Assembly (NCBI GenBank): GCA_964057225.1
Contig: OZ059899.1
Location: forward strand, 11,222,001 to 11,286,000
DNA length: 64,000 bases
Direction: 5' to 3'
From: Auanema rhodensis
Lineage: Eukaryota > Animalia > Nematoda
Shown here: piece after piece, positions 1-59,263 of the stretch
Numbering within the stretch: position 1 is the first letter of the stretch
Layout: each line of letters opens with the position of its first letter
Position numbers and translations under genes: made by a program
Notes under the pieces: model-generated
Database searches by the model: none
The model's input: only the letters and a program-made list of their open reading frames with translations
What the model was told of the DNA's origin: nothing

Positions 1-2140
1 AAAGATGAACTTTTGTTCGTAAGATATGCTTTATTGGTGGTAATAAGCATTTTCGGAGAGATGGGGGACGGAGAAGGGCTCCTCCAGTAGCTTTAGTACA
101 TAGCTGGTATGCTTCAGCTGTTGTAACCAGTGATAAGATTACTGATAAAGCTACGGCTAAAGTCAAAGGAGATATCAGAGTCAAATTATTGACTCTTGAG
201 CCTCTACCTCTGCCTCTATTGTTGTTATTTCCCCTAAAGGTACTGTTATTTCTCTGTCTATTATTGCTCATTTCTTGATTTTGTGATGCATTATGGCTTC
301 TTTGATACCCATTTTGATTTTGATTCTGATAATTTCGACCGCGGTCACCAAAATTGCGGTTCCTAGCAAATGGGTTTTGGAAATTCCAGCCTTTTTGATT
401 TTTTGAAAATTTATGATAATTTTGATTGTTTTGAAAGTTTGGATGATAATTGTTATAATTATTATAATTTTGATAATTTTTATTATTAAAAGATTGATAA
501 CCTCTTGCCATACCTCTCCCACCATTGTTTCTGCGCGGGGGGAAAGTTCTTTCAATTGCGTTAACCAATAGCGCCTGAGGGTCTGCTACTTGGTTTGCAA
601 TTGATTCCTCCCAGCGAGCACTATCAACAGCCTCAGCAAAAGTTTTGGGTTTTGCTCGAATTACCCCTGGGCGTATCGTATTTTTCAAGCCTCTCAAAAA
701 TGTGGACCTCAGAATGTGATCTTTATGAGTATCACTATTAGAGAAAGCATTTAAGCTGAGGTTTCTTAACGTTTGTGCAAAACCATCAATTGATAAATCG
801 CCTTGAGTGCTGTTTTGAAGTGTGATAAGGGCAGGGTCTTGATTGTATTCGGGACACAGCTTGGATGTTAACTCTTCTATGAGGGTAACCCAAGGTCCAG
901 CTGTTCTGACCTTGTCAGGTAGCTCTAAATAAGCTTCCTCTGCTCTATCATTTTTCAATAGTAATGGTAAAATAGTTAGTCTTTCGGGCATCACTAAGCC
1001 TAAGGCGTTAGAAAAGGTATTAAACTTTGCCACGAAATCTCTAAAGTTACGACTTCCGTCGTATATGGGGCAATAAGGTGAGCTTAATGCGTGCGCAATG
1101 GTAGATTTACCAGCTCCCGGAAGACGTGGTGTCTCCGTCATGGTTGGTATATCCTCAGGGTATGTGCGAGATGACGTAATCCCTTTACTGCCTGAGCTTC
1201 TCGCCGTTAAGTTCTTACCTCCCTTTTTCGAGTTACCAGATGTTGGATAACTAATGGTAGGGGCGGCTGAGGAGAACCGCTTCCCTGGGAGTTTGATAAC
1301 TCGACTCGTTGCCTGAGGCGTCGAATGTATTGAAACGCTTGAGCTGGGTATAGCGCTATCTGACTTATTAAGGGTTGGGTTGGAGGATACGTGAAGAGAG
1401 TTATCAACTTGTTCTGTTGTTACCTCCCCTGGAGACAAATTCAAAACTTTTATTAAGCGAGCTGTTAAAGATTTCTTACTTTTGAACTTATCAGTAGTTA
1501 GTGATAAGGGCAAAACTTCGGTAATTTCCTGATTTGGTTCTATGGGATTATTAGAGGTTGAGCGCCTACGCGGTGTATTAGTTTTTCTTTTATTAATCTT
1601 TTTAGAATCAAGCTTTTTCGAATCAAGCTTATCAGTGATAACTGATAAGGGTGATTTGCGAATAGTGAGAGATGAGGTTTTATTAAGTTGTGAGTTTTCT
1701 ATCGGAGTGGAAAATGCCTGCGGTGTTAGAGTTAGTTCAAAAGAAGATGCAAGATCGTTATCAGTATTAACTGATAAAGTTGATAAGTTTAGGTGGGGGG
1801 TGGCTGGTGAAGTATTAGAGGTTATTTGTTTTGGTTTTTGAATTTTTTTAATCTTTTTATTACTTTTAAAAGAGTGTACCTTTGGAGTTGAAGCTGAAGT
1901 TTGAATATTGTAGTCCTGAATATAGAAATCAGGGTCCTCCTCGGTGTTGTCCGGAGGTGAATACGTGCCTTCTCGAGGAATGAAGGTTTTCTCGACTTTG
2001 GGTTTTACCTCTTGTTCAGGCTCTTCAATCTGAACACTGAGGAGTCGAGTGCGGCTTCTGGTTCGACTGGCGACTGCGATGTCGTCACTGGACTCAGAAG
2101 GGTATAGAGCAGGGATGGCCGAAGAGTATCTTCGTGCCAC
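1..2140 (-). CDS. gag: Partial Gag-Env(-Pol) polyprotein of family B copy 1 (Gag, Env signal peptide and Env N-terminus)
   Basis: Colinear with ORF 50517-59222; about 11 substitutions by eye and no frameshift seen. Confidence 0.88.
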   Translation of the reverse strand, partial: MARRYSSAIPALYPSESSDDIAVASRTRSRTRLLSVQIEEPEQEVKPKVEKTFIPREGTYSPPDNTEEDPDFYIQDYNIQTSASTPKVHSFKSNKKIKKIQKPKQITSNTSPATPHLNLSTLSVNTDNDLASSFELTLTPQAFSTPIENSQLNKTSSLTIRKSPLSVITDKLDSKKLDSKKINKRKTNTPRRRSTSNNPIEPNQEITEVLPLSLTTDKFKSKKSLTARLIKVLNLSPGEVTTEQVDNSLHVSSNPTLNKSDSAIPSSSVSIHSTPQATSRVIKLPGKRFSSAAPTISYPTSGNSKKGGKNLTARSSGSKGITSSRTYPEDIPTMTETPRLPGAGKSTIAHALSSPYCPIYDGSRNFRDFVAKFNTFSNALGLVMPERLTILPLLLKNDRAEEAYLELPDKVRTAGPWVTLIEELTSKLCPEYNQDPALITLQNSTQGDLSIDGFAQTLRNLSLNAFSNSDTHKDHILRSTFLRGLKNTIRPGVIRAKPKTFAEAVDSARWEESIANQVADPQALLVNAIERTFPPRRNNGGRGMARGYQSFNNKNYQNYNNYNNYHPNFQNNQNYHKFSKNQKGWNFQNPFARNRNFGDRGRNYQNQNQNGYQRSHNASQNQEMSNNRQRNNSTFRGNNNNRGRGRGSRVNNLTLISPLTLAVALSVILSLVTTAEAYQLCTKATGGALLRPPSLRKCLLPPIKHILRTKVHL

Positions 2141-2552
2141 TTTGGAATCACTCTTGGTTTGGAAAAACCGCGAGTGTTTCGTTATATGGGGGATGTTGAC
2201 GTTGAATGAGTGACAAGAAATTCAGGTCGGTTATAGGGAAAAGTAAGAAAAGTTTGAAGATTGAGACGTGGCGTCTTTCGCCGAGAATCGTTATTAGATG
2301 AGAAAGAGTTTTAAAATCTTGGCCTGAGATCTGGCTCCGCCTATCTACCGTATTCTCTTTTCTTTATTCTTTTTCACAGATGTTCATCAATTATAAATTT
2401 TGTTGGTCTTCGCTCTTTCCAGCCTCGATCTTAATACTTTACTCTAATTGAATTCTTGAAAGTATGAGAGAGATTTTCAGTCGTTTTATGTCCCCTTTTT
2501 ATGCATAAGAATCTTTATATTTGTAGAGCTGAAAAAAAAAATAAATCAAAGA

Positions 2553-3086
2553 ATGGCTTATGAAGGTCTATCGGGAATGACTTTTGTCTTGAGGAAGCTG
2601 TACGCTGACCTCGTCTTGTATGATCAAGACGAAGTGTTAGCTTATAGGCCGCACCCAGACATAATTAAGATGGTTGGTTAAAACAAAGAAACATGTTATG
2701 TTAATAAGAATTTTTAGTTTATTGAGGATTTAAAGATGCATTATCTGGGAAGGGGATTAGTAAACTTCTCCCTAATGCAGGAAATAGCGGATGAGGTTGC
2801 AGCTATTGGGCGATGGTGCCTCACCGATTTGTGTGCGCATTGGTATGAAAACCCCAATTTAATCGCATCCCCTTGGAATTGGTATGAGCATAAGCCTCAT
2901 GATTTTTATGATTATATGTCTAAAATTTTGTTTAAAATTTATTTGTTTTATGAACAGTCTCCTATGGTCTTATTGCTAAGGACCTCTGCGGATTCAGTGT
3001 ATTCGCAGTATTTAGAGCCTAGCAATGAGCCCATCTCACAGCCTATAGAATTTGTGAGACAGTTGCATTTTAAATGGGGCTTTTAA
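2553..3086 (+). CDS. Spliced accessory gene antisense to the element (exon 1 2553-2672, 45-nt intron 2673-2717, exon 2 2718-3086; 162 aa; unknown function)
   Basis: ATG at 2553, GTTGGT...TTTTTAG intron, in-frame join to the 116-aa ORF, AATAAA at 3103; intact in both copies. Confidence 0.75.
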
Positions 3087-4047
3087 CAATTGTTTCATAT
3101 ATAATAAATACTTAATTTCACTCATTTGTTCTCTCTCTCTTTTTTTTTTCATAACACAAACTTTGGTCGAGCTTATTAATAAAGAAGGAGTGCGTGCGCC
3201 TTGGGAAAATGGCTCATGTGCACGTTGATTATTAAAAGCCGTGGGCGATTCTTTTTCGGAATGATTTTGGCATGCTAATGAGATTCCGAGAATATTTAAA
3301 AAGATTGCTCATTTTACTAATGGACTGAGACCAAAGCTCGTTTATAAAACGCAATTTTTTTTCGTCAAACCATTCTACTAATTTATAGAATATTACAATA
3401 TGAATACTACGGTAGGTGTGTGGAAATATCTTATGATGTTAGCAACAAAAATGAGCTGAGGAAGGTGACACATTCTACGGAGAAGAAAACATCCGTAGCC
3501 CATGTGCTTTCGCCAAAATGACCTGACAGGCAATAAAATTTGTGCCAGGATTTTTCGGACTAGTGTGGTCTATTCTCACAATCAAAAAAAAAATAAAAAC
3601 CGAATAACGGCTCCCGCAAAAATATTTAGTTAGCATGCTCTTTTACGCCTGAATTTAACTTTCAAATCTCTAGTCCTGACCACAATAAAATATTAAACTT
3701 TGTGCGCTTTCAAAATTTCATTCTAACTCCTCGTTGCCAAATAATAATGTAATCAAAATTTCGTTTGGTGAAATTGTCCCCTATTTCGATCCAAACGTCC
3801 TCAAAAAAAAAAATGCAAAAGAAGCGGTGCAGGATACGGTATTATAAGGGTGGACACTCAGACGGTTTTATGATAGGGGACAGCGGGTGAAATTTCAAAA
3901 TTATATAGTCCTAGCTCTCTAAAAGAGAGATCCCTTGTACCTGCACCTTATACAAGTTGGCGCCCTCATTATGTTGCTAACCGTGGAGGAAGTTTTAATT
4001 TAGATATCAAAATATGGACTTTTTATGCGAGTTTTTGCGACAAAAAT

Positions 4048-4068
4048 GAGTTCGAGGTGGAACCTCCA
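4048..4068 (-). promoter_or_regulatory. Primer binding site (tRNA-Gln), family B copy 1
   Basis: TGGAGGTTCCACC directly after the LTR; complement of the tRNA-Gln 3' end GGTGGAACCT-CCA. Confidence 0.85.
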
Positions 4069-4434
4069 CGTTCCATTATGCTCCTACGTATATTGAACAG
4101 ACCATTGTAGTCTGCTCAACTACGCGTATAGTATTCCATAAGTGTAGCGGTATGGAAACAGAGCATAAGGATTACATAAGATAAGGAAATATATAGGTTT
4201 ATTATACACAATACAATATCATTACAATACAATAACACAAGGATAAAGTAAACTACATTTACAAGACAAAGACTAATATATAAGATTAACTAAGTTAGAT
4301 GCAAACCGTCCATGGGCTTGCAAAGGGGCGAACTCCCGAATAGGGGCATGAGGGAAGGCGGTGCCATTCCTCATTCCTCTAGTCGGTCTGGCTCTAACCC
4401 TGCAGTTACATATATAGAGTCTCCGAATGGAACG
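4069..4434 (-). repeat. 5' LTR of family B copy 1 (366 bp)
   Basis: One difference seen versus LTRs 48224-48589 and 59921-60286; termini CGTTCCATT...AATGGAACG. Confidence 0.95.
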
Positions 4435-4518
4435 TCTTTTTGTTCTTTAACAAAGTTATGACTGAGATCAAAATTTGAACTTACTTTTGAACAATTAAAC
4501 AGAAATTCAAAAAATATT

Positions 4519-5259: not shown

Positions 5260-6124
5260 TACGAAAGTACGAAATAACAAAGCGCTGATTATAGGAAACG
5301 TGAATGAATGCAGATATTCTCAATTCCGATTCATTAACTAGATCGTGGTCAGCATTTTACAACATTGATAAAATAGAAACTGAGAAAAAAACATCAACAA
5401 ATGACACTATTAACTTGGTTTTTTGAACAGCTTTTTTATATTTCTTTTTTCACTATGAGAGAACTTATATTTATTGCTTTTTCAAAATTTTCCATTTTTA
5501 ACATTATACATCTTGACTATCACACATTGAGAACAACAGTTGGCAATGTTGGTTGTCACGTCATGTTTCATGCAGTTAGATTTTCAGACACATTAATACC
5601 TTTGACCATTCTTCTTATGAGTTTTGTAACGATAGATCGTAATAGGAAATGAATTGCTATAATATGAAAAAATACAAGACATAGTCAACATTGATTTCCC
5701 CAAATAGTATCATGTTTGCTTGTTATTCAATTAGAACACTTATTTTTTGATTGTTTTCTTGAAATATTCTTTTTTTTTCTTTAACAAAGTTATGACTGAG
5801 ATCAAAATTTGAACTTACTTTTGAACAATTAAACAGAAATTTAAAAAATATTTGCCGCTAGCAGGGGTCGAACCTGGGGTCTGAGACGTTTCGTCGTCTC
5901 CTATTTTTACAACCTCTCCCCAGCAAGCCTAACGGTCGTAAATTATACCACACGTGTTGTACTCTCAGTTTTTGGTCGTTTAGACTTCTAAAAATTACCC
6001 AAAAACTTAAACAGTTCATAAAAAATCGAGGTTTTCAATCTAAACGGCAAGGAGGTTTTTGTGTTAGAAAAAAAAGATATGATTCAAAAAATTTATTAGA
6101 GTTTAGTTTTTCAAGTTAAATGAT

Positions 6125-8170
6125 TCAAAAATAAGATTTTCTGGTGTTAAACTTCGCCATCTCCTCGACATATGCTATTATTTCTTGCTGATTAGGCAGT
6201 CGGTTATTGGAGATGCTCCTAAAGTTTTCAAACTGAACCTCAATCCGTTGTTGCCTCTCAATTACGTTTTTTCTTTTTTTCCTGGCAGGCTCAACATTCG
6301 ATGACAAAGCGATCAGGACATGATTAGCCATCAAATTTTCACCATGAAAAAAAGTAATTAATTCAGAAAGAGGAGGATGAGAGCAAGATAAAATAGTCTT
6401 CATTTTACGGTGAAAAGATTCAACATTATTAGATGTACGAAACTGTTTTATGTCCCATTTGCTTCAATAATGTCGCAAAGGTCCTTCAATCCATGTTTCA
6501 TTCACATAACTGATCATTTGAAGACAAGAAGAATATGATGGATGATCAGAAGAAACAGGAGAATTGAGTAACCCGGACCGTGAGATAAGATCAGTTTGAA
6601 GGAAGAGCAAGCCCAGCAGCCGACCATGCCATTGTTTGATTTCAATGGATTGCTTCTCTGCTTGTGTCAAACCCAGTTGAAGAAACCGTCTGTTCAAGCT
6701 CTGAGCATAATGAAATGCACATCCTTGAACAGAATTAAAAATAGTTTCAGCTTCCCTTATTACAGCGATCTCAAAATCACAGATAAAAATAAGGTTTTCA
6801 ACTATGCAACCAACGTTGGAGAGAGCTAGTGCAATATGTTGAAGAAGCCTTCTATAAGTGAACCTACTCTTATTTTTTAAAATGGAATAGAAAAGAGGTA
6901 CAGTTGTTCCATTTCTGCAACCGCCCATGATGGTCTATGTTTGTTCCATATCCAAAGGCTGGTATTTGAAACAACCGTCCCCAAGCAAATGAGTTAAACC
7001 ATTCTGAACAGCTAGTTCCAAACAAAATGTATCGAAATACAAATGAAACTCGCTGTCATGAAAATGCAAGAACGTACGACCATTGATAGTTTTAGACAGA
7101 GACAGAGGAACATTGGTCATGGATGTTCTTAAGTCTTTACGAGAACTTAAAGCCCTTGTAATAGCTCTACGTCTACTGTCATAGCCACCATGAAACCAAG
7201 CAGAGGAAACTTCTTGCTTTTCATGCTCTTCTAACTCAGATTCATGAAATATTTTTTTTATTTCATTGACAAATAAGGAATATGCTTTCATCTCAAAACA
7301 TGAGTCTGAACTTTTAATATTCTGAGTTAGAGAGTATGTGATATTTTTGCATTTGTTAATAGAAAACAAAAATGGATCACAATGATGGTTTTGAGCAACA
7401 GGATTTTCGAGAAATACATTATTTTCTACTTTGATAGAAGTGTATTTACCCAAATGTTTACAACCTGTGCAACGATAAATAGAATAAGCTTTTTGAGAAC
7501 TTTTACTACTGAATTGGTAGCGATACAGCAAGTTTTCAAATTTATATTCTAAACAGGGGTGTACACCCTGCTTAGAAGGCGCAATGAGAGCGGCGTATGA
7601 GTTAGGATTTGCAGATTGCAAAGAAAATGAAGAAGAAGGAGAGGGAACAGAAGAAGAAGGAGAGGGAACAGAAGAAGAAGGAGAGGGAACAGAAGAAGAA
7701 GGAGAGAGAACAGGTAAAGAAGGAGAGGAAACAGAAGGAGGAGAAGAAGAAAGAGAAGATGACGGTGAAGAATGAACGGCAGAAGAAGAAGAAGAAGGCT
7801 GAATAGAAAGATGTGAAGTAGAAGAAGAGAACAGTGGAACGCTGTTGACAGTAGGAACAGTAACTGTAGCAACAGATTCAACTGAAGAAGATGCCGCAGA
7901 TGAAATTGCTAGAGAAAGAGCAGAAGCAAAATTAACATTTTGCTGCCTCAATGGAGGGATATTAAAAGATGGAAGAGTGAAATTTAAAAATGAGAGTGAA
8001 GTTACATCATTTGAATAAACTTCAAGATTCTGAGTATTTACCGAAGAATTATTAAAAAAGATAGTTATGTTCTCCGAAGGAACATTATCAAAAGGCTGAG
8101 AAACAAGAACAAATTTACCCTGAGCGTTAATCATCAGAGAAAATGGACAGAAAGTAGAAGGAAAAATCAT
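6125..8170 (-). pseudogene. MULE DDE transposase disrupted by two in-frame stops (TAG at 6935-6937, TGA at 6464-6466)
   Basis: Three ORFs in one frame with motifs GDGCF, CDFE, GCAFHY and RTSNNVESFH; the stops fall where Tyr and Trp would be expected. Confidence 0.85.
7629..7755 (+). repeat. 21-bp purine-rich minisatellite (GAAGAAGAAGGAGAGGGAACA) encoding VPSPSSS repeats in the transposase N-terminus
   Basis: About 3 near-perfect units plus degenerate ones. Confidence 0.85.
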
Positions 8171-9171
8171 GATGAACGAGAAAAGATGAGAAAGTGTGAA
8201 TAAGCAAACTTATCGAAAGAAAAGATAAACTAACAACTATTACTATGAACTCACGTAACTGTTGACTTGAAACTGTTTGATGATAGCCTGGTTGATAGAA
8301 CTGTATGTTTATTTTAATTTCTGCTTTTTTCAATTTATATTTTGATGGCAGTTCAAGGTATGTAGCCACTTATATCTGACTTCTATAGATTTATAGCTTT
8401 AATAGCACCCCGAGTTACATGAACACTGACAGTTGTCAGCACATTATCATAAAGTTTGCCCTCTAATGATCAGCCTGAACTAGTTCACAAACTAGAGACG
8501 ACGAAACCTCCGCCACCCTCGAACCTGCGACCTTGGGCTTATTAGACCCACGCTCTAACCGACTGAGCTATGGCGGCTACGAAAGTACGAAATAACAAAG
8601 CGCTGATTATAGGAAACGTGAATGAATGCAGATATTCTCAATTCCGATTCATTAACTAGATCGTGGTCAGCATTTTACAACATTGATAAAATAGAAACTG
8701 AGAAAAAAACATCAACAAATGACACTATTAACTTGGTTTTTTGAACAGCTTTTTTATATTTCTTTTTTCACTATGAGAGAACTTATATTTATTGCTTTTT
8801 CAAAATTTTCCATTTTTAACATTATACATCTTGACTATCACACATTGAGAACAACAGTTGGCAATGTTGGTTGTCACGTCATATTTCATGCAGTTAGATT
8901 TTCAGACACATTAATACCTTTGACCATTCTTCTTATGAGTTTTGTAACGATAGATCGTAATAGGAAATGAATTGCTATAATATGAAAAAATACAAGACAT
9001 AGTCAACATTGATTTCCCCAAATAGTATCATGTTTGCTTGTTATTCAATTAGAACACTTATTTTTTGATTGTTTTCTTCAAATATTCTTTTTTTTTTCTT
9101 TAATAAAGTTATGACTGAGATCAAAATTTGAACTTACTTTTGAACAATTAAACAGAAATTTGAAAAATATT

Positions 9172-11725: not shown

Positions 11726-11783
11726 GTTAGATTGCGTGGGTCTAATAAGCCCAAGGTCGCAGGTTCGACCCCTGCTGGCGGCA
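11726..11783 (+). pseudogene. 5'-truncated tRNA-Ile(AAT) at the inversion junction
   Basis: Begins in the D-loop (GTTAGAttGCGTGGG); the 5' acceptor strand is missing. Confidence 0.85.
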
Positions 11784-12376
11784 AATATTTTTCAAATTTC
11801 TGTTTAATTGTTCAAAAGTAAGTTCAAATTTTGATCTCAGTCATAACTTTATTAAAGAAAAAAAAAGAATATTTGAAGAAAACAATCAAAAAATAAGTGT
11901 TCTAATTGAATAACAAGCAAACATGATACTATTTGGGGAAATCAATGTTGACTATGTCTTGTATTTTTTCATATTATAGCAATTCATTTCCTATTACGAT
12001 CTATCGTTACAAAACTCATAAGAAGAATGGTCAAAGGTATTAATGTGTCTGAAAATCTAACTGCATGAAATATGACGTGACAACCAACATTGCCAACTGT
12101 TGTTCTCAATGTGTGATAGTCAAGATGTATAATGTTAAAAATGGAAAATTTTGAAAAAGCAATAAATATAAGTTCTCTCATAGTGAAAAAAGAAATATAA
12201 AAAAGCTGTTCAAAAAACCAAGTTAATAGTGTCATTTGTTGATGTTTTTTTCTCAGTTTCTATTTTATCAATGTTGTAAAATGCTGACCACGATCTAGTT
12301 AATGAATCGGAATTGAGAATATCTGCATTCATTCACGTTTCCTATAATCAGCGCTTTGTTATTTCGTACTTTCGTA

Positions 12377-12450
12377 GCCGCCATAGCTCAGTCGGTTAGA
12401 GCGTGGGTCTAATAAGCCCAAGGTCGCAGGTTCGACCCCTGCTAGCGGCA
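12377..12450 (+). tRNA. tRNA-Ile(AAT), inverted copy, acceptor variant
   Basis: Full cloverleaf on the + strand. Confidence 0.92.
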
Positions 12451-13043
12451 AATATTTTTTAAATTTCTGTTTAATTGTTTAAAAGTAAGTTCAAATTTTG
12501 ATCTCAGTCATAACTTTGTTAAAGAAAAAAAAAGAATATTTCAAGAAAACAATCAAAAAATAAGTGTTCTAATTGAATAACAAGCAAACATGATACTATT
12601 TGGGGAAATCAATGTTGACTATGTCTTGTATTTTTTCATATTATAGCAATTCATTTCCTATTACGATCTATCGTTACAAAACTCATAAGAAGAATGGTCA
12701 AAGGTATTAATGTGTCTGAAAATCTAACTGCATGAAACATGACGTGACAACCAACATTGCCAACTGTTGTTCTCAATGTGTGATAGTCAAGATGTATAAT
12801 GTTAAAAATGGAAAATTTTGAAAAAGCAATAAATATAAGTTCTCTCATAGTGAAAAAAGAAATATAAAAAAGCTGTTAAAAAAACCAAGTTAATAGTGTC
12901 ATTTGTTGATGTTTTTTTCTCAGTTTCTATTTTATCAATGTTGTAAAATGCTGACCACGATCTAGTTAATGAATCGGAATTGAGAATATCTGCATTCATT
13001 CACGTTTCCTATAATCAGCGCTTTGTTATTTCGTACTTTCTTA

Positions 13044-13117
13044 GCCACCATAGCTCAGTCGGTTAGAGCGTGGGTCTAATAAGCCCAAGGTCGCAGGTTC
13101 GACCCCTGCTAGCGGCA
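13044..13117 (+). tRNA. tRNA-Ile(AAT), inverted copy with two acceptor-stem mismatches (possible pseudogene)
   Basis: GCCACCA / TAGCGGC. Confidence 0.85.
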
Positions 13118-13969
13118 AATGTTTTTTAAATTTCTGTTTAATTGTTCAAAAGTAAGTTCAAATTTTGATCTCAGTCATAACTTTGTTAAAGAAAAAAAAA
13201 AGAATATTTCAAGAAAACAATCAAAAAATAAGTGTTCTAATTGAATAACAAGCAAACATGATACTATTTGGGGGAAATCAATGTTGACTATGTCTTGTAT
13301 TTTTTCATATTATAGCAATTCATTTCCTATTACGATCTATCGTTACAAAACTCATAAGAAGAATGGTCAAAGGTATTAATGTGTCTGAAAATCTAACTGC
13401 ATGAAACATGACGTGACAACCAACATTGCCAACTGTTGTTCTCAATGTGTGATAGTCAAGATGTATAATGTTAAAAATGGAAAATTTTGAAAAAGCAATA
13501 AATATAAGTTCTCTCATAGTGAAAAAAGAAATATAAAAAAGCTGTTAAAAAAACCAAGTTAATAGTGTCATTTGTTGATGTTTTTTTCTCAGTTTCTATT
13601 AAATTTTCCATTTTTAACATTATACATCTTGACTATCACACATTGAGAACAACAGTTGGCAATGTTGGTTGTCACGTCATGTTTCATGCAGTTAGATTTT
13701 CAGACACATTAATACCTTTGACCATTCTTCTTATGAGTTTTGTAACGATAGATCGTAATAGGAAATGAATTGCTATAATATGAAAAAATACAAGACATAG
13801 TCAACATTGATTTCCCCCAAATAGTATAATGTTTGCTTGTTATTCAATTAGAACACTTATTTTTTGATTGTTTTCTTCAAATATTCTTTTTTTTTCTTTA
13901 ACAAAGTTATGACTGAGATCAAAATTTGAACTTACTTTTGAACAATTAAACAGAAATTTAAAAAATATT

Positions 13970-18602: not shown

Positions 18603-19019
18603 TGTTACATACATATCTCAAAGGAAAGCAGCTGACCATGGCAGCTGCTATTATTAAACTAATGCAGATAGTTTTTAAGCAATTCTGAGAATATTCTAGA
18701 TGCACTTTTTATAAGCTTTGTAACAATTTGTGTAAACTGAGTAGGAGTTGTATGGATATATAAACCTGAGTCCTCAAGACTCAGGCATCTCATTATCTCA
18801 TTATCTTACTTTCTCTTTATCTTCTTTATATTCTCTTTCTTAACTCTAGCTTTAATCTTTGTATAATTATATTATAATGCGAACAATAAAGCTTTATATA
18901 TTTCATCTTTTGTTTCTTATTTCACCTTACATTACACACTTATATTTAAAATCATACTCATCGTCTCATAGTCTGTTTGGATATCTCAACTTGGAACCAT
19001 TGGGAATCCAAATGGAACG
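18603..19019 (+). repeat. 5' LTR, family A
   Basis: TGTTACAT...ATGGAACG; TATATAAA at 18757; AATAAA at ~18885. Confidence 0.95.
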
Positions 19020-19037
19020 TGGAGGTTCCACCGAGAT
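19020..19037 (+). promoter_or_regulatory. Primer binding site (tRNA-Gln), family A
   Basis: TGGAGGTTCCACCGAGAT, an 18-nt complement of the tRNA-Gln 3' end ATCTCGGTGGAACCTCCA. Confidence 0.9.
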
Positions 19038-19550
19038 ATACACCAACCACACAAAAATCACCTACGCCCGCACTTTCTTCAACCACACCCGCAGTAAGCT
19101 CATCCCCACCTCTACGAAACTCACCTTCATCCATTTATCATTCTACATCTGGGCATTCTCTATCTCCGTCTCTTCCATCGCAAACTAATCAAGCAAATAC
19201 TTTTGTTGCAGAAAACAAGAGAATTAACCCAAGAATGGACCCAATGGACGAAGGCGCACCACTTACGCAAACCTCGGGAAGGGCACCTGTTCCAACACCT
19301 ACAATCATCCCTCAACCAGCAGCGATTCCGTCCGCCATGCGCGATATAAAAGCTCCACGCTACGATGGAAAAACACCATTCAACCGCTATCTACTATACC
19401 TAGATGAACACTTCAACGCTACAAGAACAACTATGCCCGAACGTCTTCAAAGCATACAATTATTGCTAGAAGATGATCGAGCTTGGATGGGACCATGTCA
19501 AGAAGCGACTCTCAGAAATGATCACACCGAAAAAATAGAGAGAACGAGCA

Positions 19551-20783
19551 ATGCACCGCCTACATGGCTTGAAACAGTTACCAACGGAATCGGTACAAAG
19601 CTTTGCAACAAGATGTTCTAACGAAGCCTACTCGGCTATGGACATGAACAACGAAAGTGAGCTTAACATGCTCCGATCCACCTTCACTTGGGGACTAAGA
19701 CCCGAAATAAGCGAACATGTTAGCCGTCTAGACCCACCAAACTTTGAGGAAGCTTACGAAATGGCCTTACGAGAAGAACTCTTTATACAAAATAGACCAC
19801 CATCGTTCGTCAACAATATGGAGAAGTCGTTCAACAACCTCAACATTCGAGACTCAAAGGACAACAATCAATACCAGAGAAACGAATCTAAGGAGTTCAA
19901 AGGAACCAAACCGATGTATAATGGCAATGGCAAACCACACAACCGATATCCGGACAGATACAACAACCAATATCGGCCTCATCAACACCAATACAGGAAC
20001 CATAACTCACGATTCTCTCAAAATAAGGGATCAAGACAAAACTACTTCGACAGATCACGGAACAGAAGCCAGGAAAGACCATACTATCGAAACCGCGACC
20101 AAAACTATAGCGGACACAACAACCGGCGACAATCAAACAATCACGAACAATACCCCTCTCAATACAATCGAAGCCAATACAACAATTATAGAAGTCGCCC
20201 GCGCAGCACCTCCAATGGACCGGAACGGTATAGAGAACGCACACAGAGCCCAGGAGTACGTTTTCAAGTCAACAACGTCACGGAAAACGAAGTACCGAAC
20301 AACAAAAGAAAATCAACACCATTCCTACCCCTCTTTATCACAATTATCGCACTCATTATAAATACATGCAGTGCAGAAACAACGTACCAGTTATGCACAG
20401 GAAACAGAGGAGGAATATATGTTGAGCCGCCATCGCCAACAGCTTGCCGATCCATCGCACCAACTAATAACCATATCCAGAAGACTACAGCAGAATTGTT
20501 CATCCAAAACCTACAACCAAAAGAATGGGAAGCATGGAAATGTGCATTTGAAACTTACCAACTCTGCATTCACGACGTTTTCTTCATCAGAGAAACTAAT
20601 GTCTCACTAGCAAAAGTTTCACCAACAACACTGCAAGAATGTTCGTCAGCTATTAAAGAAAGAATATTCAACGGTACCAACCTTCAAAGAGAAGCACCAG
20701 GACTCTATGGAACTCCTTCCCACATACAACTATTACTAATGGTATATGGAAACAGGAATGCGAACAACGTACCAGATTCATAG
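19551..20783 (+). CDS. gag: Fragment: Gag C-terminal part (capsid, N/R/Q-rich NC-like region), Env signal peptide and Env N-terminus
   Basis: LRSTFTWGLRP..PPNFEEA; hydrophobic FLPLFITIIALIINTCSA then TTYQLC. Confidence 0.8.
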   Translation: MHRLHGLKQLPTESVQSFATRCSNEAYSAMDMNNESELNMLRSTFTWGLRPEISEHVSRLDPPNFEEAYEMALREELFIQNRPPSFVNNMEKSFNNLNIRDSKDNNQYQRNESKEFKGTKPMYNGNGKPHNRYPDRYNNQYRPHQHQYRNHNSRFSQNKGSRQNYFDRSRNRSQERPYYRNRDQNYSGHNNRRQSNNHEQYPSQYNRSQYNNYRSRPRSTSNGPERYRERTQSPGVRFQVNNVTENEVPNNKRKSTPFLPLFITIIALIINTCSAETTYQLCTGNRGGIYVEPPSPTACRSIAPTNNHIQKTTAELFIQNLQPKEWEAWKCAFETYQLCIHDVFFIRETNVSLAKVSPTTLQECSSAIKERIFNGTNLQREAPGLYGTPSHIQLLLMVYGNRNANNVPDS

Positions 20784-20797
20784 CTGAACGAGGACAC

Positions 20798-22636
20798 ATG
20801 ACCAGCCTACAAGACAATACAGTACTCTCAGATATATTCATAAACGACAACGGATGCACCAGTGACAAAGGACAATGCCTAACCAACAACGCTCTCATCA
20901 TATGGACCCCACCATCAGAAAAACATAGTTGCTCGTACACTTCATTAGGCTCTCACGAAGTTTTTATATCAGAAGACACCATATTGATTCCCGGAATTCA
21001 AAGTGCTTTTATTCTAAACAATAAAACACCGGAAAAAGAAGCCTCCTCATGCTTACAAAAAGAGATATTTACTACAAATAGCGGAACTCTAATCTCCTTC
21101 AACTCAACCTCAAGCTTAGGACGATCAAGAAGACACGCAATCACGGAATACCCTAAAGGATTCTTGACAGTTCATCAATACCCCTCGCTAAGATATTCAG
21201 CCAGCAAAACGGGAACTATTCTACTATATACAACCTATATTCAACGGAAAAGACTTGACATACATTACAATCTCAATAACATAACTAATATGTTACCTAA
21301 GTATATCGCAATCTTCAAATACCTAGGTATAAATTTTGATGTTATCAAAAATCGTCTTATATGGCACAAATATGAAGACGTCAACATAGCCATTCTATAC
21401 GCCCTAGGAGAAGCAGAAATAAGAGAAGCAACAAAAATCGCGATCGATAATCTATCGTATAAGGAACTTACGCATAAACTTAGCAAACGGATCACAATTA
21501 AGGATTTTAAGAAGATAATACCAACCAAAACAGGAGACTACTATGAAATCGCGAAAGAAATTGCTTACTCACTTGCGGAAATACCTACTACGTTAGCTAC
21601 AGGAGAAACAACACCATCTTTAGAAGAATACTTATATCAACTCATGCCACCAAGAAAACCAAGACTCACCAAGACACGAAACGATTTAGAACTGTACGAA
21701 CAACTAGCACAAGCAAAAATTATCCTGAACGCAATAAATAATCCGAAGAAGCTACATTCAAAAGAAGAATACGAAGCAGAAATGAAGAAATGGATCAAAT
21801 ATGAAAAAGATCTAAACTTACCACCATTACAACTGCCAAACTACACAGTTATCTTCGATGGCGACGATATATTCTACGGCTTCCGGAAAAGAAACCCTAC
21901 AAATTATAGCATTACACAAGAGGATAGTGGAAAATTTTATAATCATTATCTACCCCTTATCAGTACTCCCGGAACACGACCTTTTGCAACCACAATTAGA
22001 AGCACTTCGACCCCCCTACAAACTACTACTACAACCACTACCACGACCCCTAAGCCTACAACCATAAGGAACGTCATCACTTCGACAATCACACCCAAAA
22101 CACATATATCCACAACAACTAGACCCAAACCAACAATACCCACGTCTTCATCAACTACTACTACTACCACTACTACTACTACTACTTCTACTACTGCTAG
22201 ACCCAGATCAACAACAACCACAACACCTACAACAACCACAACTATATTCACCACTCATCGACCAACACAATCATTCTCCACCCCCCAATCTACATTCAAT
22301 ATTACTACAAACCCAATCACAATCACCTCAAGCCAGGAATACAATAGGAAAGAATCACTCACCAAGTCACTGCCTCCAAGAACCACAAAAAGATCTATCA
22401 CTACCACTCGCAGCACACCCGAAGAAATATCATCACATATTGGTAAGAAAGCCCACGTAGACTACCTTAAAGCTAAGAACGATATCGTCCAAAAATGGAA
22501 TGAACATCTTCATCAACAAGAAACGCAATCTCATCTACAATATGCCACTACCAATCTGGAAGATGATATCATACGTACGTTCGCAACAAACAGAAACAAC
22601 ATCTGCCACGTACAAAATAAACAACTACTTACCTAG
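20798..22636 (+). CDS. env: Fragment: Env ectodomain (gB-like) with furin site and Thr-rich mucin-like region
   Basis: Cys pattern shared with family B, RSRR at 21122, ICHVQN motif. Confidence 0.8.
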   Translation: MTSLQDNTVLSDIFINDNGCTSDKGQCLTNNALIIWTPPSEKHSCSYTSLGSHEVFISEDTILIPGIQSAFILNNKTPEKEASSCLQKEIFTTNSGTLISFNSTSSLGRSRRHAITEYPKGFLTVHQYPSLRYSASKTGTILLYTTYIQRKRLDIHYNLNNITNMLPKYIAIFKYLGINFDVIKNRLIWHKYEDVNIAILYALGEAEIREATKIAIDNLSYKELTHKLSKRITIKDFKKIIPTKTGDYYEIAKEIAYSLAEIPTTLATGETTPSLEEYLYQLMPPRKPRLTKTRNDLELYEQLAQAKIILNAINNPKKLHSKEEYEAEMKKWIKYEKDLNLPPLQLPNYTVIFDGDDIFYGFRKRNPTNYSITQEDSGKFYNHYLPLISTPGTRPFATTIRSTSTPLQTTTTTTTTTPKPTTIRNVITSTITPKTHISTTTRPKPTIPTSSSTTTTTTTTTTTSTTARPRSTTTTTPTTTTTIFTTHRPTQSFSTPQSTFNITTNPITITSSQEYNRKESLTKSLPPRTTKRSITTTRSTPEEISSHIGKKAHVDYLKAKNDIVQKWNEHLHQQETQSHLQYATTNLEDDIIRTFATNRNNICHVQNKQLLT

Positions 22637-22669
22637 TGGGCTATTCTTCAAATAAATCCTACTATAGGG

Positions 22670-25600
22670 ATGCGTACAATGCTACGACGACAGGATATAT
22701 CTGCAAGATTCATAAATGATAAACTAATTTATGTAATGCCATGCACACCAATTCAAATTACAAAAACATACCGCGATCACAAAGTCAACAGCACGTGTTT
22801 TCTGGAAACCCCAGTCGAAACGGAACATCACGGCCAACTGTTCATCCTACCAGGTACAAGAGACCTCACACCGATGGCACATCCCATACCATGCGGACTC
22901 ACAATCAAGGATCCCTGGAAAGAAAACGATCAATGGACTAATAATAACCAATCAATAAATGTAACATCACCAGCATACATCGACGAGTTAGGATCAATCA
23001 ACCTAGAACATATCAAGTTTAATGGAAGCAACATTTTCAACAACCTAACAGAATCAACGTTTCCTATGGCACTAGCAATATCATATGAATCCAGCTTAGC
23101 AACGCTACAGGCTACTTTACCAGGAAGAATAAAACCTGTAATCAAACAAAGATTAATTCCTAACATGAACCCTGTTACCCTAACAGCAGGAGCAGCCAGC
23201 AGCTTACTACTCAGCTACGAAAATACAAAAGAAGCTATAACTTGGAAAATGTTTGACTTTCTGTCACCAATATGGGAAAAGATTCAAACCTGGACACTAC
23301 GCGTACTTGCTATCATTGGATCAATCATCATAACAATTGGCATAATCACACTCGCCACCTGGATAATAAAAATATACGCATGTAGTTCAAGGATACCCAT
23401 CAACAATGTCAAATGGGAAGCAGAATACTTACAACCACTATCAACTGAGAACACAAGAACAGAAACATCTCATCCTTCTCCGTCCGCTCCATACGTCGAC
23501 AACCATCACAACAGCTGTCAACTCACATTGTATGATCCTTCAGCACAAATTCCTGAACACATTTATGAAGCTTATTTCCCTACAAGAATGAAGAAAGAAA
23601 ACATAAACTACATAGGAGGATCACAATTACCGTTTGTCCCGATTTCAATCCACAATCACATCTTTAAGGCACTATGGGACACGGGAGCATCAGCATCATA
23701 CATGCGAGAATCCACCTTCAAACAACTGCCCGCTGCAACGATGGTACTAAAACAAACAACAGCGATAGTCGCGAATAAATCTAAATTCTCATTTATGGGA
23801 TACACAAGGATCCTCATAACAATAGGAACAACAGAAACAGAACACAAATTTTATGTAGCAGAAGATAACTACTGTCCAGCACCAGTGTTACTTGGAATAG
23901 ACTTCATGGAAGCATTACATCAACAAGGAATTTACACCTCACTTCGACCGCTGGATAAAACAATTGTTATCGGCACAACACATGTTCCACTAGCACGAGA
24001 AACATCTCCGTGGGAACACCAGACCACAAAAGCATATGTGGTTAGCTTAGAAAACAAAACGCTGAGACCAGGAGAAACAAGAACGCTCACGCTAGAAGTA
24101 CACGATCCAGAAAGCTATGAACAGGCGTTTCTAGATTGTAAGAAACCAGGCAACAAACTCTCTTTCACGCCTACTATATTTACGCCAACTGGATACGGAG
24201 TACAAATTTACGCGACGAACATATGCAAACAGCCACTCGAAATTCAAATGAATCAAGAAATAGGGATAGCAGAAGCGATACCAAAGGACAACCAAGAAAA
24301 ATACGAAGGACAATACATACCTCCGGAAGCTCGATGGGAAGAACAACTGCCATATTTCCCAGACAATTTCATCAATGAACTTGACCTTTCAGAAGCCTGC
24401 TTCTCACAAAACGAACAACAGCAACTGAAAGAAATAATTTTACTACATAAACAAGCGTTTCTCAACGAAGATAGAAATATCGGACTCTTCCTAGGACCAA
24501 TTGAACACTCCATTCCAATCATGCCAGGAAAAACACCATCATTCAAAATTACTTATCGTATACCACTCTCCCAACAAGAAGAAGTGGAGAAACAAATAGA
24601 AGAAATGCTACAACAAAGAATCATTGAACCATCAAACTCAATGACAACTAGTCCAGTAATTTTGGTGAAGAAGAAAGACAAAACTTACAGATTTGTAACG
24701 GACTTTCGAGCTTTGAATGCAATCACTCAGAAACAAGTATATGTCATATCAAACATACAGGACATCCTAGATTTGGCCGCTGGAGCAAGGATCTTCAGCC
24801 ACTTTGATTTAGTATCTGGATTTTTCCAAATACCTCTTAAGAAGGAAGATCGTCATCGTCATCTTACAGCTTTCACAACAACAAGTGGAACTTACCAATA
24901 TTGTCGAATGCCGATGGGATTATGTGGATCACCCCATACTTTTCAAAACGCAGTACGATACCTGCAATCAATGGTTAAATGCAAGCTATTCGTATATCTA
25001 GATGATTTACTACTAATTTCTGAATCTACGACAGCACATTTAAAAGATATCGAAGAAGTTTTGGAAACAGTAACTCAAATAGGATTCAAAATAAAACTGA
25101 AGAAATGCGCATTCGCAAGAAAGGAAGTAAAATTTCTAGGATACATAGTTGGACAAGAAGGAATTAAACCCGACCCACATAAAATCAAGGCAATACAAGA
25201 TTATCCCCAACCAAAATCAACAACAGGAGTAAGAGCTTTCATGGGAGTAGTAAACTACTTCAGAAGGTTCATAAAAAACGCTGCAGGAATAGCAACACCA
25301 CTCTACAACCTCACTCGGAAAGACACTCCGTTCAAATGGACAGAAGAAGAAGAAATTGCTTTTAATACTTTGAAGAAAACATTGACTCAAGCACCTGTGT
25401 TACAAGCACCAATCCCGAAACGACCATATGTTATTGAAAGTGATGGAAGTATGATAGCAGTTGGCGCTGTACTACTTCAAGCGAAAGACGATCAAGTACC
25501 ATTACACCCAATAGCTTCTGCTAGTCGGAAACTCAACAAAGCTGAAAGGAATTATCCACCAATAGAAGTAGAAGCATTAGCTCTTACATTCGCCGTTAAA

Positions 25601-26269
25601 CAATTTCGCACCTACATACTAGGAACAGCAACCAAAATTATCACGGATCATAGACCACTTACTAGTTTAATGACTAGAAAAGATTTAATAGGTCGTTTAG
25701 CAAAATTTCAAATTGTTTTACAAGAATACGATATTGAAATTATCTACAGACCAGTAAAATTAAATAGTGTATGTGACGCATTATCACGATATTTTGAAGA
25801 TGAAATCAACGAAGCAAAACCACTAGCAAAGAAGAAAAACGAAAGAAAAACGACGGAAGATACTATTCATAAGATAAACACCTTCACGATAGCAGATATT
25901 CGATCAGTTCAGAATCAATCAAATTGGATAAAAGAAACTATGGATAAAATAAAGAACAATACAGCTGGACGACAACTGACGGACAGATATATTGTGTACA
26001 ACGATGTACTATACTCAAAACCAAAAAGAAGCCTACAAGTACCACGAACAATTTTACCACGAGAAGAGCACATAATTAATCCAATTATGAAGAAATTTCA
26101 TGAAGATCCGACACTCGGAGCTCATCTAGGAATAAACAAAACAATGGACTCAATATCAAGACGATTTACATGGACTGGAATGCAAGAAGACATTACAAAC
26201 TACATCAACAGATGTCTTGCTTGTGCAAAAAGAAAGAACAATCCTCACGAAGCAACGGTGAACCAATGA
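22670..26269 (+). CDS. pol: Fragment: Env C-terminus/TM fused in frame to protease, RT, RNase H and integrase N-terminus
   Basis: TM helix, LWDTGA, YLDD, ESDGS, H-H-C-C. Confidence 0.9.
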   Translation: MRTMLRRQDISARFINDKLIYVMPCTPIQITKTYRDHKVNSTCFLETPVETEHHGQLFILPGTRDLTPMAHPIPCGLTIKDPWKENDQWTNNNQSINVTSPAYIDELGSINLEHIKFNGSNIFNNLTESTFPMALAISYESSLATLQATLPGRIKPVIKQRLIPNMNPVTLTAGAASSLLLSYENTKEAITWKMFDFLSPIWEKIQTWTLRVLAIIGSIIITIGIITLATWIIKIYACSSRIPINNVKWEAEYLQPLSTENTRTETSHPSPSAPYVDNHHNSCQLTLYDPSAQIPEHIYEAYFPTRMKKENINYIGGSQLPFVPISIHNHIFKALWDTGASASYMRESTFKQLPAATMVLKQTTAIVANKSKFSFMGYTRILITIGTTETEHKFYVAEDNYCPAPVLLGIDFMEALHQQGIYTSLRPLDKTIVIGTTHVPLARETSPWEHQTTKAYVVSLENKTLRPGETRTLTLEVHDPESYEQAFLDCKKPGNKLSFTPTIFTPTGYGVQIYATNICKQPLEIQMNQEIGIAEAIPKDNQEKYEGQYIPPEARWEEQLPYFPDNFINELDLSEACFSQNEQQQLKEIILLHKQAFLNEDRNIGLFLGPIEHSIPIMPGKTPSFKITYRIPLSQQEEVEKQIEEMLQQRIIEPSNSMTTSPVILVKKKDKTYRFVTDFRALNAITQKQVYVISNIQDILDLAAGARIFSHFDLVSGFFQIPLKKEDRHRHLTAFTTTSGTYQYCRMPMGLCGSPHTFQNAVRYLQSMVKCKLFVYLDDLLLISESTTAHLKDIEEVLETVTQIGFKIKLKKCAFARKEVKFLGYIVGQEGIKPDPHKIKAIQDYPQPKSTTGVRAFMGVVNYFRRFIKNAAGIATPLYNLTRKDTPFKWTEEEEIAFNTLKKTLTQAPVLQAPIPKRPYVIESDGSMIAVGAVLLQAKDDQVPLHPIASASRKLNKAERNYPPIEVEALALTFAVKQFRTYILGTATKIITDHRPLTSLMTRKDLIGRLAKFQIVLQEYDIEIIYRPVKLNSVCDALSRYFEDEINEAKPLAKKKNERKTTEDTIHKINTFTIADIRSVQNQSNWIKETMDKIKNNTAGRQLTDRYIVYNDVLYSKPKRSLQVPRTILPREEHIINPIMKKFHEDPTLGAHLGINKTMDSISRRFTWTGMQEDITNYINRCLACAKRKNNPHEATVNQ

Positions 26270-27813
26270 AAAATTTTCCAACATCAACAAAACCATGGCA
26301 AAGAGTACACATGGATATACTCGGACCATTACCTAGGACAGAACAAGAAAACAGATATGTTCTTTCAATTCAAGATTCTTTTTCAAAATGGATTATCGCA
26401 ATTCCGCTAATCAGACAAACATCAGGAGAAATTATATCAGCTATCGAAAAATATCTCTTCTATGTTTTTGGACCACCTGTTACTATCATCACAGACAATG
26501 GATCTAATTTTATTTCAAACGATTTCACTACTATGTGCAGTAATTTTGGAACTACACACCACACTACTATGCCGTATTACAAAAACGCTAACGGACAAGT
26601 GGAAAGATTGCATCGGACGATCGAAGAAGCATTAACACCCTACGTTAATGACGAACAAAACGATTGGGATAAAATACTTCCGAAGATTATTTTTACACTC
26701 AACAGATTACCAAACGCCACCACTAAAACATCACCATACGAATGTTTGTTTGGACAAGTAGCATGTCTACCCATTGACAAAAACTTGGAAACACCGGAAG
26801 AACAAAATATCACGGATCAGCTCAAAAACTTAAGAGATATTCAAGAAAAAGTCAAGGAAAAGATTGCCACCAACGAAGAAAGAATGAAGCAGAAATACGA
26901 TCAAGCACATAGGACAAAAGAAAGAATATTAGATATAGGAGATCGAGTATTTGTACAAAGAGCGAACCCAAGCAACAAATTACAAATACGAAGAGATGGA
27001 CCTTACCGGATAGTGACAATTGAAGGAAACAACATCAGCATAACGGACCAAGATGGAAATATTATAAAAGCTCACAAAAATAACATACGTTATTTTCCAC
27101 CAGACGATAATCTTATATCAACAAGAAATAATGAAGAAGAGGAAGAAGAGGACCAAGACATAGCAAACGAAGAAGAAGAAGAAGAAGAAGAAACAAGTTG
27201 GAATAATCTGGATGAATGGGAACAAACCAATAATACGGAAAATAACAACAACTGTTACCCAACAGGCAGTCCAGATACTCTCGCGCAACTGTTACCTATC
27301 ACAGGGAATAACAGAGGAGTAAACGAAGAAGAAATTGAACATAATTCAGAAACACCTGACGACCTTGCTACAGCAAGAAGAATAACAAATTCTAATATAC
27401 AATTAGAAAATGAATCAACAACAATCGACAGAATTCAAGAGGACCTCAGACAGCTGACACCTTTCTCTCAAGAAGAAGGTCCTAATCAAAACGATATAGA
27501 AGATAATAACGCAAAAACATACGAAAAGCTACGAGATCAATTCAAGAATGAAAACAGAAAGGAGCTATTTGAGGACAGAAACAAAAACTCACCAGCAATC
27601 AAAAATTGGAACACTACACTTGCCGCAGCACTAGGAATAGGAAATGAAAACTCACGCCCGTATCATGTTAAACTAAAACCCAAAAGAAAAACACAAGACG
27701 AAGAAATCAGAAGTAATGGAGAATTGGAACTACATGGAAAAGCGGATCAAAGCAAAAAGCAGCAGAATAAATCTCCAACGCAAAACAAAGGAGAACAAGT
27801 ACGAAACTTTTAA
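26170..27813 (+). CDS. Fragment: integrase core, GPY/F motif and long acidic tail
   Basis: VHMDILGP, ITDNGSNF, NGQVER, DGPY. Confidence 0.9.
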   Translation: MDWNARRHYKLHQQMSCLCKKKEQSSRSNGEPMKNFPTSTKPWQRVHMDILGPLPRTEQENRYVLSIQDSFSKWIIAIPLIRQTSGEIISAIEKYLFYVFGPPVTIITDNGSNFISNDFTTMCSNFGTTHHTTMPYYKNANGQVERLHRTIEEALTPYVNDEQNDWDKILPKIIFTLNRLPNATTKTSPYECLFGQVACLPIDKNLETPEEQNITDQLKNLRDIQEKVKEKIATNEERMKQKYDQAHRTKERILDIGDRVFVQRANPSNKLQIRRDGPYRIVTIEGNNISITDQDGNIIKAHKNNIRYFPPDDNLISTRNNEEEEEEDQDIANEEEEEEEETSWNNLDEWEQTNNTENNNNCYPTGSPDTLAQLLPITGNNRGVNEEEIEHNSETPDDLATARRITNSNIQLENESTTIDRIQEDLRQLTPFSQEEGPNQNDIEDNNAKTYEKLRDQFKNENRKELFEDRNKNSPAIKNWNTTLAAALGIGNENSRPYHVKLKPKRKTQDEEIRSNGELELHGKADQSKKQQNKSPTQNKGEQVRNF

Positions 27814-28016
27814 TTAACTAACAAAAATCGTAGAATTGTAAAAATAATTTTTCTTTCTTTCGTATAGTACATTAAACATAAGACATAGATCAAAAACCAC
27901 CGAAATTCTAATTTCTATCCTTTAATTTTAACAAATTGTAACAATCACTGAAAAACAAACTATATAAAGAGAAAATTTTGATAGAGAAAAATTCAATAAC
28001 ACTTTTCTTACTCAAA

Positions 28017-28661: not shown

Positions 28662-28856
28662 AGAAGAGAGGAAAGGTTTAAATCATTTATAAAATTCTAT
28701 CTCTTAAAAAAATTTTTCTCTTTATCAATAGTTTGTTGAAAAAAAAAATTTGCTTTATCTCATGCCATTTTAATTTTTTTAATTTTTTAATTTTTCTCTC
28801 TTAATTATTATTTGCATATAACAGCTGAGGTCAGCTGACTTGTATCCGTTGGAGCA

Positions 28857-48589: not shown

Positions 48590-48610
48590 TGGAGGTTCCG
48601 CCTCGAACTC
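48590..48610 (+). promoter_or_regulatory. Primer binding site (tRNA-Gln)
   Basis: TGGAGGTTCCGCC (A>G versus copy 1) immediately after the LTR. Confidence 0.83.
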
Positions 48611-49571: not shown

Positions 49572-50105
49572 TTAAAAGCCCCATTTAAAATGCAACTGTC
49601 TCACAAATTCTATAGGCTGTGAGATGGGCTCATCGCTAGGCTCTAAATACTGCGAATACACTGAATCCGCAGAGGTCCTTAGCAATAAGCCCATAGGAGA
49701 CTGTTCATAAAATAAATAAATTTTAAACAAAATTTTAGACATATAATCATAAAAATCATGAGACTTATGCTCATACCAATTCCAAGGGGATGCGACTAGA
49801 TTTGGGTTTTCATACCAATGCGCGCACAAGTCGGTGAGGCACCATCGCCGGATAGCTGCAACCTCATCCGCTATTTCCTGCATTAGGGAGAAGTTTACTA
49901 ATCCCCTTCCCAGATAATGCATCTTTAAATCCTCAATAAACTAAAAATTCTTATTAACATAACATGTTTCTTTGTTTTAACCAACCATCTTAATTATGTC
50001 TGGGTGCGGCCTATAAGCTAACACTTCGTCTTGATCATACAAGACGAGGTCAGCGTACAGCTTCCTCAAGACAAAAGTCATTCCCGATAGACCTTCATAA
50101 GCCAT
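49572..50105 (-). CDS. Spliced antisense accessory gene (exon 1 50105-49986, intron 49985-49941, exon 2 49940-49572; 162 aa)
   Basis: Same exon-intron structure as 2553-3086; 5 amino-acid differences; frame intact. Confidence 0.75.
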
Positions 50106-59222: not shown

Positions 59223-59263
59223 CAACAAGATAATGCTACGTTATTTAAATTATTGTAACAAAA

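Follow-up and report, generated by a model that had tools for sequence, protein, structure and literature searches.

Gypsy elements of plants and fungi, as well as HTLV, already provide examples of extra genes that run antisense to the coding frames of retroelements. The brtn gene of the Botrytis element Boty contains an intron, HBZ of HTLV carries a bZIP domain, and ORF0 of LINE-1 is positioned in the 5' UTR of that element. In plants and fungi, passages of three papers (PMC7264820, PMC11963269, PMC8365987) place antisense extra ORFs between pol and the 3' LTR, as in gene23 of maize Grande, rice RIRE2, TRP28 of Retand, and brtn of Botrytis Boty, and the same passages mention extra ORFs upstream of gag for LTR retrotransposons. 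In animals, antisense coding transcripts are described for HTLV-1 (HBZ), HTLV-2 (APH-2), LINE-1 (ORF0), and the mussel element MchSLE-1 (passages of PMC11963269, PMC7264820, PMC10974842). According to these passages, the antisense promoter is the 3' LTR in the HTLV viruses and MchSLE-1, and LINE-1 is a non-LTR element. Sections of two other papers report sense extra ORFs in rotifer elements (PMC5408684) and internal env promoters in the Tor elements of Oikopleura (PMC4402516). The accessory protein CERV of Cer1, a gypsy element of C. elegans, is described in parts of PMC3315495 and PMC10309623 as an exporter of unspliced genomic RNA that is made from a spliced, SL1 trans-spliced mRNA.

The element considered here, family B, lies in a 64,000-nucleotide stretch of Auanema rhodensis DNA (the window). 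It is a 12-kb Ty3/gypsy element whose gag, gB-type env, and pol occupy a single frame. Sacco et al. reportedly described GAG-ENV-POL errantiviruses of nematodes with an HSV/gB-type envelope in 2022. The gag-env-pol order with a gB-type env is given for nematodes, flatworms, and bryozoans in sections of Chary and Hayashi (PMC13524379). Family B is like these errantiviruses in being Ty3/gypsy, in carrying the fusogen between gag and pol, and in its tRNA-Gln primer site and similar LTR size. What sets it apart from the published GAG-ENV-POL elements is that a single frame spans gag, env, and pol and that an additional spliced gene sits in the leader. The Gln primer site fits nematode elements, as eight of the ten Gln-primed rows available from the table of PMC13524379 are Caenorhabditis elements (the summary tab counts 19). 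The leader of family B, from primer site to polyprotein frame, measures 1847 nt. Leaders of 1.2-1.9 kb appear to be present in six of these eight Caenorhabditis elements, when the first LTR is taken as the 5' LTR and the region is taken to start 3000 nt before gag. The words "antisense" and "accessory" do not occur in the available part of the main text of PMC13524379. A gene of this kind in the leader of nematode-type elements did not turn up in the literature; an earlier description may exist.

Two copies of family B are present in the window. Copy 2 is whole (48224-60286, plus strand), has identical 366-bp LTRs (48224-48589 and 59921-60286), and is flanked by a 4-bp target duplication, ATTC. 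Its frame of 2928 codons (50436-59222) displays, in order, Pfam matches to a capsid-like domain, a gB/chuvirus-like fusogen, protease, RT, RNase H, and integrase; the fusogen match is strong (E 8e-15) and the capsid match weak (E 0.024). Copy 1 (window positions 1-4434, minus strand) leaves the window at its left end and is 99.2% identical to copy 2 across 4.4 kb. Sequence comparison places its 366-bp 5' LTR at 4069..4434 on the minus strand. The primer-binding site next to it (4057..4068, minus) was assigned by comparison with the tRNA-Gln 12-mer listed in the available supplement of PMC13524379, which it matches at 12 of 12 positions (11 of 12 in copy 2). In copy 1, the window edge cuts the gag-env-pol frame and leaves its start (2..2221, minus). 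Instead of TG...CA, the LTRs of family B have a short terminal inverted repeat, CGTTCCAT...ATGGAACG (48224-48589).

The extra gene sits in the leader of family B, antisense to gag-env-pol, and consists of two exons encoding a 162-aa product. In copy 1, the coding part of exon 1 (2553..2672, plus strand) comprises 40 codons (MAYEG...IIKM) and is covered by contigs. The intron (2673..2717, plus) is 45 nt long and in phase 0, reads GTTGGT...TTTTTAG, and contains two in-frame stops; its GC content is 22%, versus 44% in exon 1 and 39% in exon 2. The coding part of exon 2 (2718..3086, plus) comprises 122 codons plus TAA. A predicted polyadenylation signal, AATAAA (3103..3108, plus), follows 16 nt past the stop and precedes a T-rich stretch. 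An intron of 45 nt and TTT(C/T)AG acceptors fit the nematode splice consensus. In copy 2 the same gene lies on the minus strand (exon 1, 49986..50105; intron, 49941..49985; exon 2, 49572..49940). Exon 1 and the intron are identical in the two copies, and exon 2 of copy 2 carries 11 substitutions, none of which creates a stop or a frameshift.

The initial annotation had regarded a 116-aa ORF at this place as only part of a gene, had joined a 40-codon exon to it in frame across a 45-nt intron with AATAAA behind, and had called both copies intact and the 162-aa product aromatic-rich. This structure stands. The 116-aa ORF is exon 2 read from an internal ATG, the proposed coordinates are exact, neither of the two copies has a stop or frameshift, and F, W, and Y account for 27 of the 162 residues (17%). 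How remarkable are such ORFs? When the leader is shuffled 1000 times, 76 of the results contain an ORF of at least 122 codons, and exon 2 by itself is thus unremarkable. A two-exon ORF of at least 162 aa with a comparable intron arose in none of 150 shuffles. Rfam returned no matches within 1800-4450. The gene is like those of Grande, RIRE2, Retand, and Boty in being antisense to gag-pol and kept among copies, here in two of two copies and in the contig variant described below (gene23 has its own internal promoter, according to the passages cited above). It differs in that theirs are plant and fungal genes between pol and the 3' LTR, whereas the family B gene belongs to an env-bearing animal element and lies between primer site and gag. 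The 3' region of family B has no two-exon ORF of at least 80 aa, and the antisense gene is found in the 5' leader instead.

Evidence for splicing comes from assembled contigs of four public runs (X1-X4) of one study. The runs were presumed by guess to be RNA, as library type is absent from their records, and their depth is ~5. Contigs were aligned to 1800-4500; they are uninformative on strand, transcript start, and level. In both X1 and X2, contigs omit exactly 45 nt at the joint 2672/2718, with GT..AG at the ends of the skipped piece and a short side of 228 letters in X1 and 58 in X2. An X4 contig has a 9-letter loose end identical to the end of exon 1, and the X3 contig ends ahead of the joint. 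The skipped piece is canonical on the plus strand only. Because it reads CT..AC on the sense strand of the element, the spliced molecule is antisense. The initial annotation had named a lack of spliced antisense transcripts as the case against the gene; two of the four presumed RNA runs contain the exact splice joint.

One X1 contig (record 2) is continuous from 2125 to 2944 and joins an upstream stretch, a 5' UTR or outron (2125..2552, plus), to the spliced exons. At its low end this stretch runs into the beginning of the polyprotein frame. The antisense RNA therefore starts upstream of its ATG and within the polyprotein frame start, provided that assembly did not merge sense with antisense molecules. 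Several sites distinguish the contigs from both copies in the window, and contig cover is absent from ~2945 to 3583, inside the intron, and over the multi-copy tRNA spacer at 4439-4500. The motif TTTTCAG (2474..2480, plus) had been put forward as a cis- or trans-splice acceptor. The motif is present and is a candidate trans-splice acceptor by sequence; its use did not find support, since contigs of all four runs run straight through it. No leader-like loose end was found at 2481 in these contigs, in which a 22-nt leader could vanish as an assembly tip, as assemblers discard short tips and minor paths. One 1600-nt X3 contig (record 14), of higher depth, has matches to 4050-4083 and to 2151-2199 that are separated by 1327 other letters; it suggests a sister family whose long leader is different.

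Further evidence for the gene comes from a homologue, P0002, the sole match among 1.84 billion representative proteins (E 1e-36). P0002 is identical to exon 2 at 69 of 121 aligned residues (56%), which are spread evenly up to the same stop, and it keeps 16 of 22 aromatics, both cysteines, and the C-terminal KWGF. Its called frame opens with M-F-Q directly ahead of the exon-2 start, where family B has TTT TAG. TTY CAR is the translation expected of a shared acceptor in the same phase, and on this sequence argument the intron position is likely conserved in P0002. P0002 is a single protein known from one 1035-nt contig alone, and the match does not imply that it belongs to a retroelement. Exon 1 has no homologues. 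Loss of frame or splice site in more distant relatives had also been named as evidence against the gene, and what was found is this one relative at 56% identity.

Other searches returned little. A word search with exon 2 gave no matches, a search with a three-row alignment gave only P0002 among 31 candidates, and a search of longer proteins, a weak test, gave none among 1268 candidates. No exon-2 locus was present among 453 pattern matches in metagenome contigs, and none of 32 matches in viral contigs was a related RT locus. RT matches in metagenomes were distant (26-48%), and the 22 such loci contained neither the antisense gene nor an env part. Pfam, with E values up to 10 admitted, gave no family for any of the three aligned proteins, and the best E values were 0.12 in PHROGs and 0.14 against PDB sequences.

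Differences between copies lean towards coding selection. The 11 differences in exon 2 comprise six synonymous and five non-synonymous changes (pN/pS 0.20, P 0.0098), and this ratio is the lowest among the six frames. With one synonymous change from the contigs added, seven of 12 are synonymous (P 0.003). The dN/dS comparison that the initial annotation had recommended thus yields ~0.2 between two copies, with the synonymous excess mostly in a 56-nt patch (2807..2862, plus), where the between-copy comparison places seven of the 11 differences, five of them synonymous. Outside the patch there are one synonymous and three non-synonymous changes, and these remaining four look neutral. Synonymous distance (pS) is sevenfold higher in exon 2 than in gag (0.085 versus 0.012), and recombination with an older variant is the likely source of the patch. 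The coding exons are free of gaps: three of three gap places between the copies, and four of four in the contigs, lie outside them. The spliced antisense gene is real and, in our view, very likely protein-coding.

Could the gene be a recent acquisition from the host, or from another virus, that arrived with its intron and is now a passenger without a role, P0002 being a host-type relative? The exon-intron layout and the poly(A) signal are host-like, the related family A lacks the gene, and P0002 is known from one contig alone. However, no host family was recovered: the 1.84 billion representatives held one match and the longer proteins, weakly informative here, held none. The copy variants differ mostly at synonymous sites, the candidate enhancer considered below is interwoven with the element's own polyprotein frame, and no terminal repeats of a nested transposon were found at the flanks of the gene. 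Such a capture is unlikely.

A candidate internal enhancer/promoter lies upstream of the gene. A cluster of ten TGATAA (GATA) sites, three groups of which form palindromes, was recognized from repeat and motif counts at 1294..1786, with no strand assigned. The ten sites fall within 493 nt, 770-1260 nt upstream of the antisense ATG. TGATAA is the commonest hexamer of the region and is absent from the LTRs and the leader; nine further sites occur deeper in gag. Shuffling the element by dinucleotides 300 times never gave ten sites within 600 nt, and 2000 synonymous recodings never gave ten, for a motif that was chosen after the repeats had been seen. A section of PMC10411582 describes TGATAA as the site of ELT-2, which is enriched among intestinal promoters and bound at some sites only; sequence by itself is thus no proof of binding. 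The cluster is a candidate for the antisense gene and could serve the LTR instead. Two short contigs of the single study end, by record length, at ~1787 and ~1793, just past the last GATA site, although contigs cannot show a start. The initial annotation had given the gene its own internal promoter. The host-like spliced gene is there, and the promoter is plausible given the GATA candidate; the 3' LTR lies 10 kb from the gene.

The cluster lies inside an unusual part of the polyprotein frame. The frame is open for 360 codons ahead of the first Met (50436-51515; copy 1, 1142-2221, minus), and four of eight between-copy differences in this ATG-free stretch are synonymous. By analogy with the Gag/CERV start of Cer1, the polyprotein frame may start at a non-AUG codon or by means of a spliced leader.

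It is also conceivable that the antisense RNA itself is functional and restrains the element, either through transcriptional interference or as double-stranded RNA, the protein being secondary. The spliced contig extends to 2125, within the polyprotein frame, and non-coding antisense RNAs are known for micropia and TART (passages of PMC7264820). Nine ATGs between 1800 and 2480 would impede translation unless the RNA is trans-spliced; only two, in a T-rich context, follow between 2481 and 2553. Trans-splicing at 2480 is attractive in view of these ATGs, which it would remove if it occurs, and is unproven. The two roles are compatible. Nevertheless, the 56% conservation of the protein to the same stop, the synonymous bias, and the gap-free exons argue for a protein, and a gene that acts chiefly as RNA is quite improbable.

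What does the protein look like? It has 21 D/E versus 13 K/R residues, two cysteines, and no basic cluster. Its best hydropathy window is 1.05, and therefore it has no membrane helix; no signal peptide-like stretch was found in the 162 residues. It does not look like either a nucleic-acid binder or a membrane protein. Structure models are poor (pLDDT 54.9 for exon 2 and 41.2 with the intron read through) and helical at low confidence. Foldseek, one of the checks recommended at the outset, gave no matches to viral and PDB structures at E 0.001. VIA structure comparison peaked at Z 5.6 with generic helical hairpins, which neither assigns nor excludes a fold. The Atlas scored Peptidase_M13_N at 0.92 with low recognition (100 of 256 features); P0002 did not repeat this (best 0.81), and the candidate was rejected. 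The protein has no domain in common with the Grande, RIRE2, Retand, and Boty proteins, TRP28 being absent. No sequence likeness to HBZ, APH-2, ORF0, or MchSLE-1 was found, and no bZIP match in Pfam. Anatomy and analogy make an accessory factor that is soluble and binds proteins the most likely reading. If the protein is real, its job may, by analogy, be counter-silencing or counter-restriction, a possibility that we tentatively put first; superinfection or copy-number control is a doubtful second, some other job is unlikely, and RNA export and an antidote function are each less likely again.

Of the four roles suggested for this gene at the outset (RNA export, anti-silencing, superinfection exclusion, and toxin/antidote action), none is established, and the first and last did not fare well. 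An exporter of unspliced genomic RNA similar to Rev or CERV has a precedent, since parts of PMC10309623 describe Cer1 as a nematode gypsy element that requires such a protein from a spliced mRNA. The family B protein resembles CERV as an accessory product of a gypsy element from a nematode, with a spliced mRNA. CERV, in contrast, is described in those parts as a sense product of 517 aa and five exons with Gag peptides and a cysteine finger, whereas the family B protein is an acidic antisense product of 162 aa that has two cysteines and lacks a basic cluster. It is a poor fit to an export factor, and this role is very unlikely.

Toxin-antidote elements occur in nematodes, and an addiction module that punishes progeny without the element could use a small, separately expressed gene such as this one as its antidote or toxin. 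The old variants among young copies (pS as above) would agree with it. However, no partner gene is seen in the leader, where a second ORF of at least 100 codons and another antisense two-exon ORF of at least 80 aa were both sought and not found, and the protein lacks a membrane helix and a signal peptide-like stretch; an addiction module is highly improbable. It is scarcely credible that the runs are actually DNA, as the missing library type and the contig differences from both window copies (another copy or strain) would allow, and that the joint reflects an intron-free DNA copy of a gene now silent, since exact GT..AG loss would itself require a spliced antisense mRNA, the runs contain just 18-21 million contig letters, and the protein conservation seen in P0002 is independent of them.

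The reading that we consider probable is an antisense two-exon gene, probably driven by an internal GATA promoter, whose likely product is a small soluble accessory protein that helps the element by binding a protein either of the host or of the element. By the rules of splicing, the genomic RNA carries the intron reversed (CT..AC), leaving it uncut in the template and copied at each retrotransposition, and the antisense mRNA is spliced as a host gene would be. The idea that an antisense intron outlasts reverse transcription was part of the initial annotation and agrees with copy 2, where identical LTRs and the 4-bp target duplication indicate recent mobility with the intron kept. A promoter at the GATA cluster, in the polyprotein frame start, would uncouple the gene from the LTR and would point to expression in the gut or another GATA-run tissue. 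The acidic, helical, non-membrane protein with its conserved aromatic core would act via protein contacts. A bolder proposal, rather unlikely in its entirety, is that the leaders of Gln-primed, env-bearing nematode retroviruses form a second unit that runs backwards: a GATA enhancer inside the polyprotein frame would drive a trans- and cis-spliced gut mRNA independently of the LTR, a new family of small proteins would disarm host defence or block rivals, and old variants would be swapped among young copies.

What appears to be new is a spliced antisense gene in the 5' leader of an env-bearing animal element, with a novel protein. Endogenous retroviruses of invertebrates pass for simple gag-pol-env elements, and spliced antisense genes escape ORF finders. 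A transcribed and selected accessory gene in a young element would make this invertebrate element resemble a "complex" retrovirus, and it offers a cheap and direct route to the role of antisense extra genes in LTR elements. The clade has Caenorhabditis members, whose long leaders are apparently unexamined and could hide similar genes.

Family A, in the same window, has an RT 68% identical to that of family B and a leader of 216 nt with no trace of the antisense gene. Because family A lacks it, the gene is an accessory of one lineage and dispensable for some members of the clade. Between pol and the 3' LTR of family A (27942-28661) lies a sense ORF of ~214 aa (ATG at 28017) that has no Pfam matches and does not resemble the protein of family B; by sequence and position it is a putative accessory gene of a different kind in the sister element. 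The polyprotein of family A (18950-27813) is broken over five frames by frameshifts and stops despite near-alike LTRs. Its LTR (18603-19019) begins with TG and shares the ATGGAACG end and the tRNA-Gln primer site with family B.

The window itself is a tandem array of 50 tRNA-Ile(AAT) genes with a 667-bp unit, interrupted by a MULE remnant and LTR elements. Three insertions of the two related families lie in this one array (18603-29273, 48224-60286, and 1-4434), at different sites within the unit (~40 and ~85 nt beyond the tRNA's 3' end and ~67 nt before its 5' end). The insertions possibly reflect tRNA-gene targeting, or merely the size of the array. The MULE remnant, identified by Pfam as a broken transposase (5877-8420), is inserted into one of the tRNA-Ile genes, and the array contains a two-unit inversion near 11730-13600.
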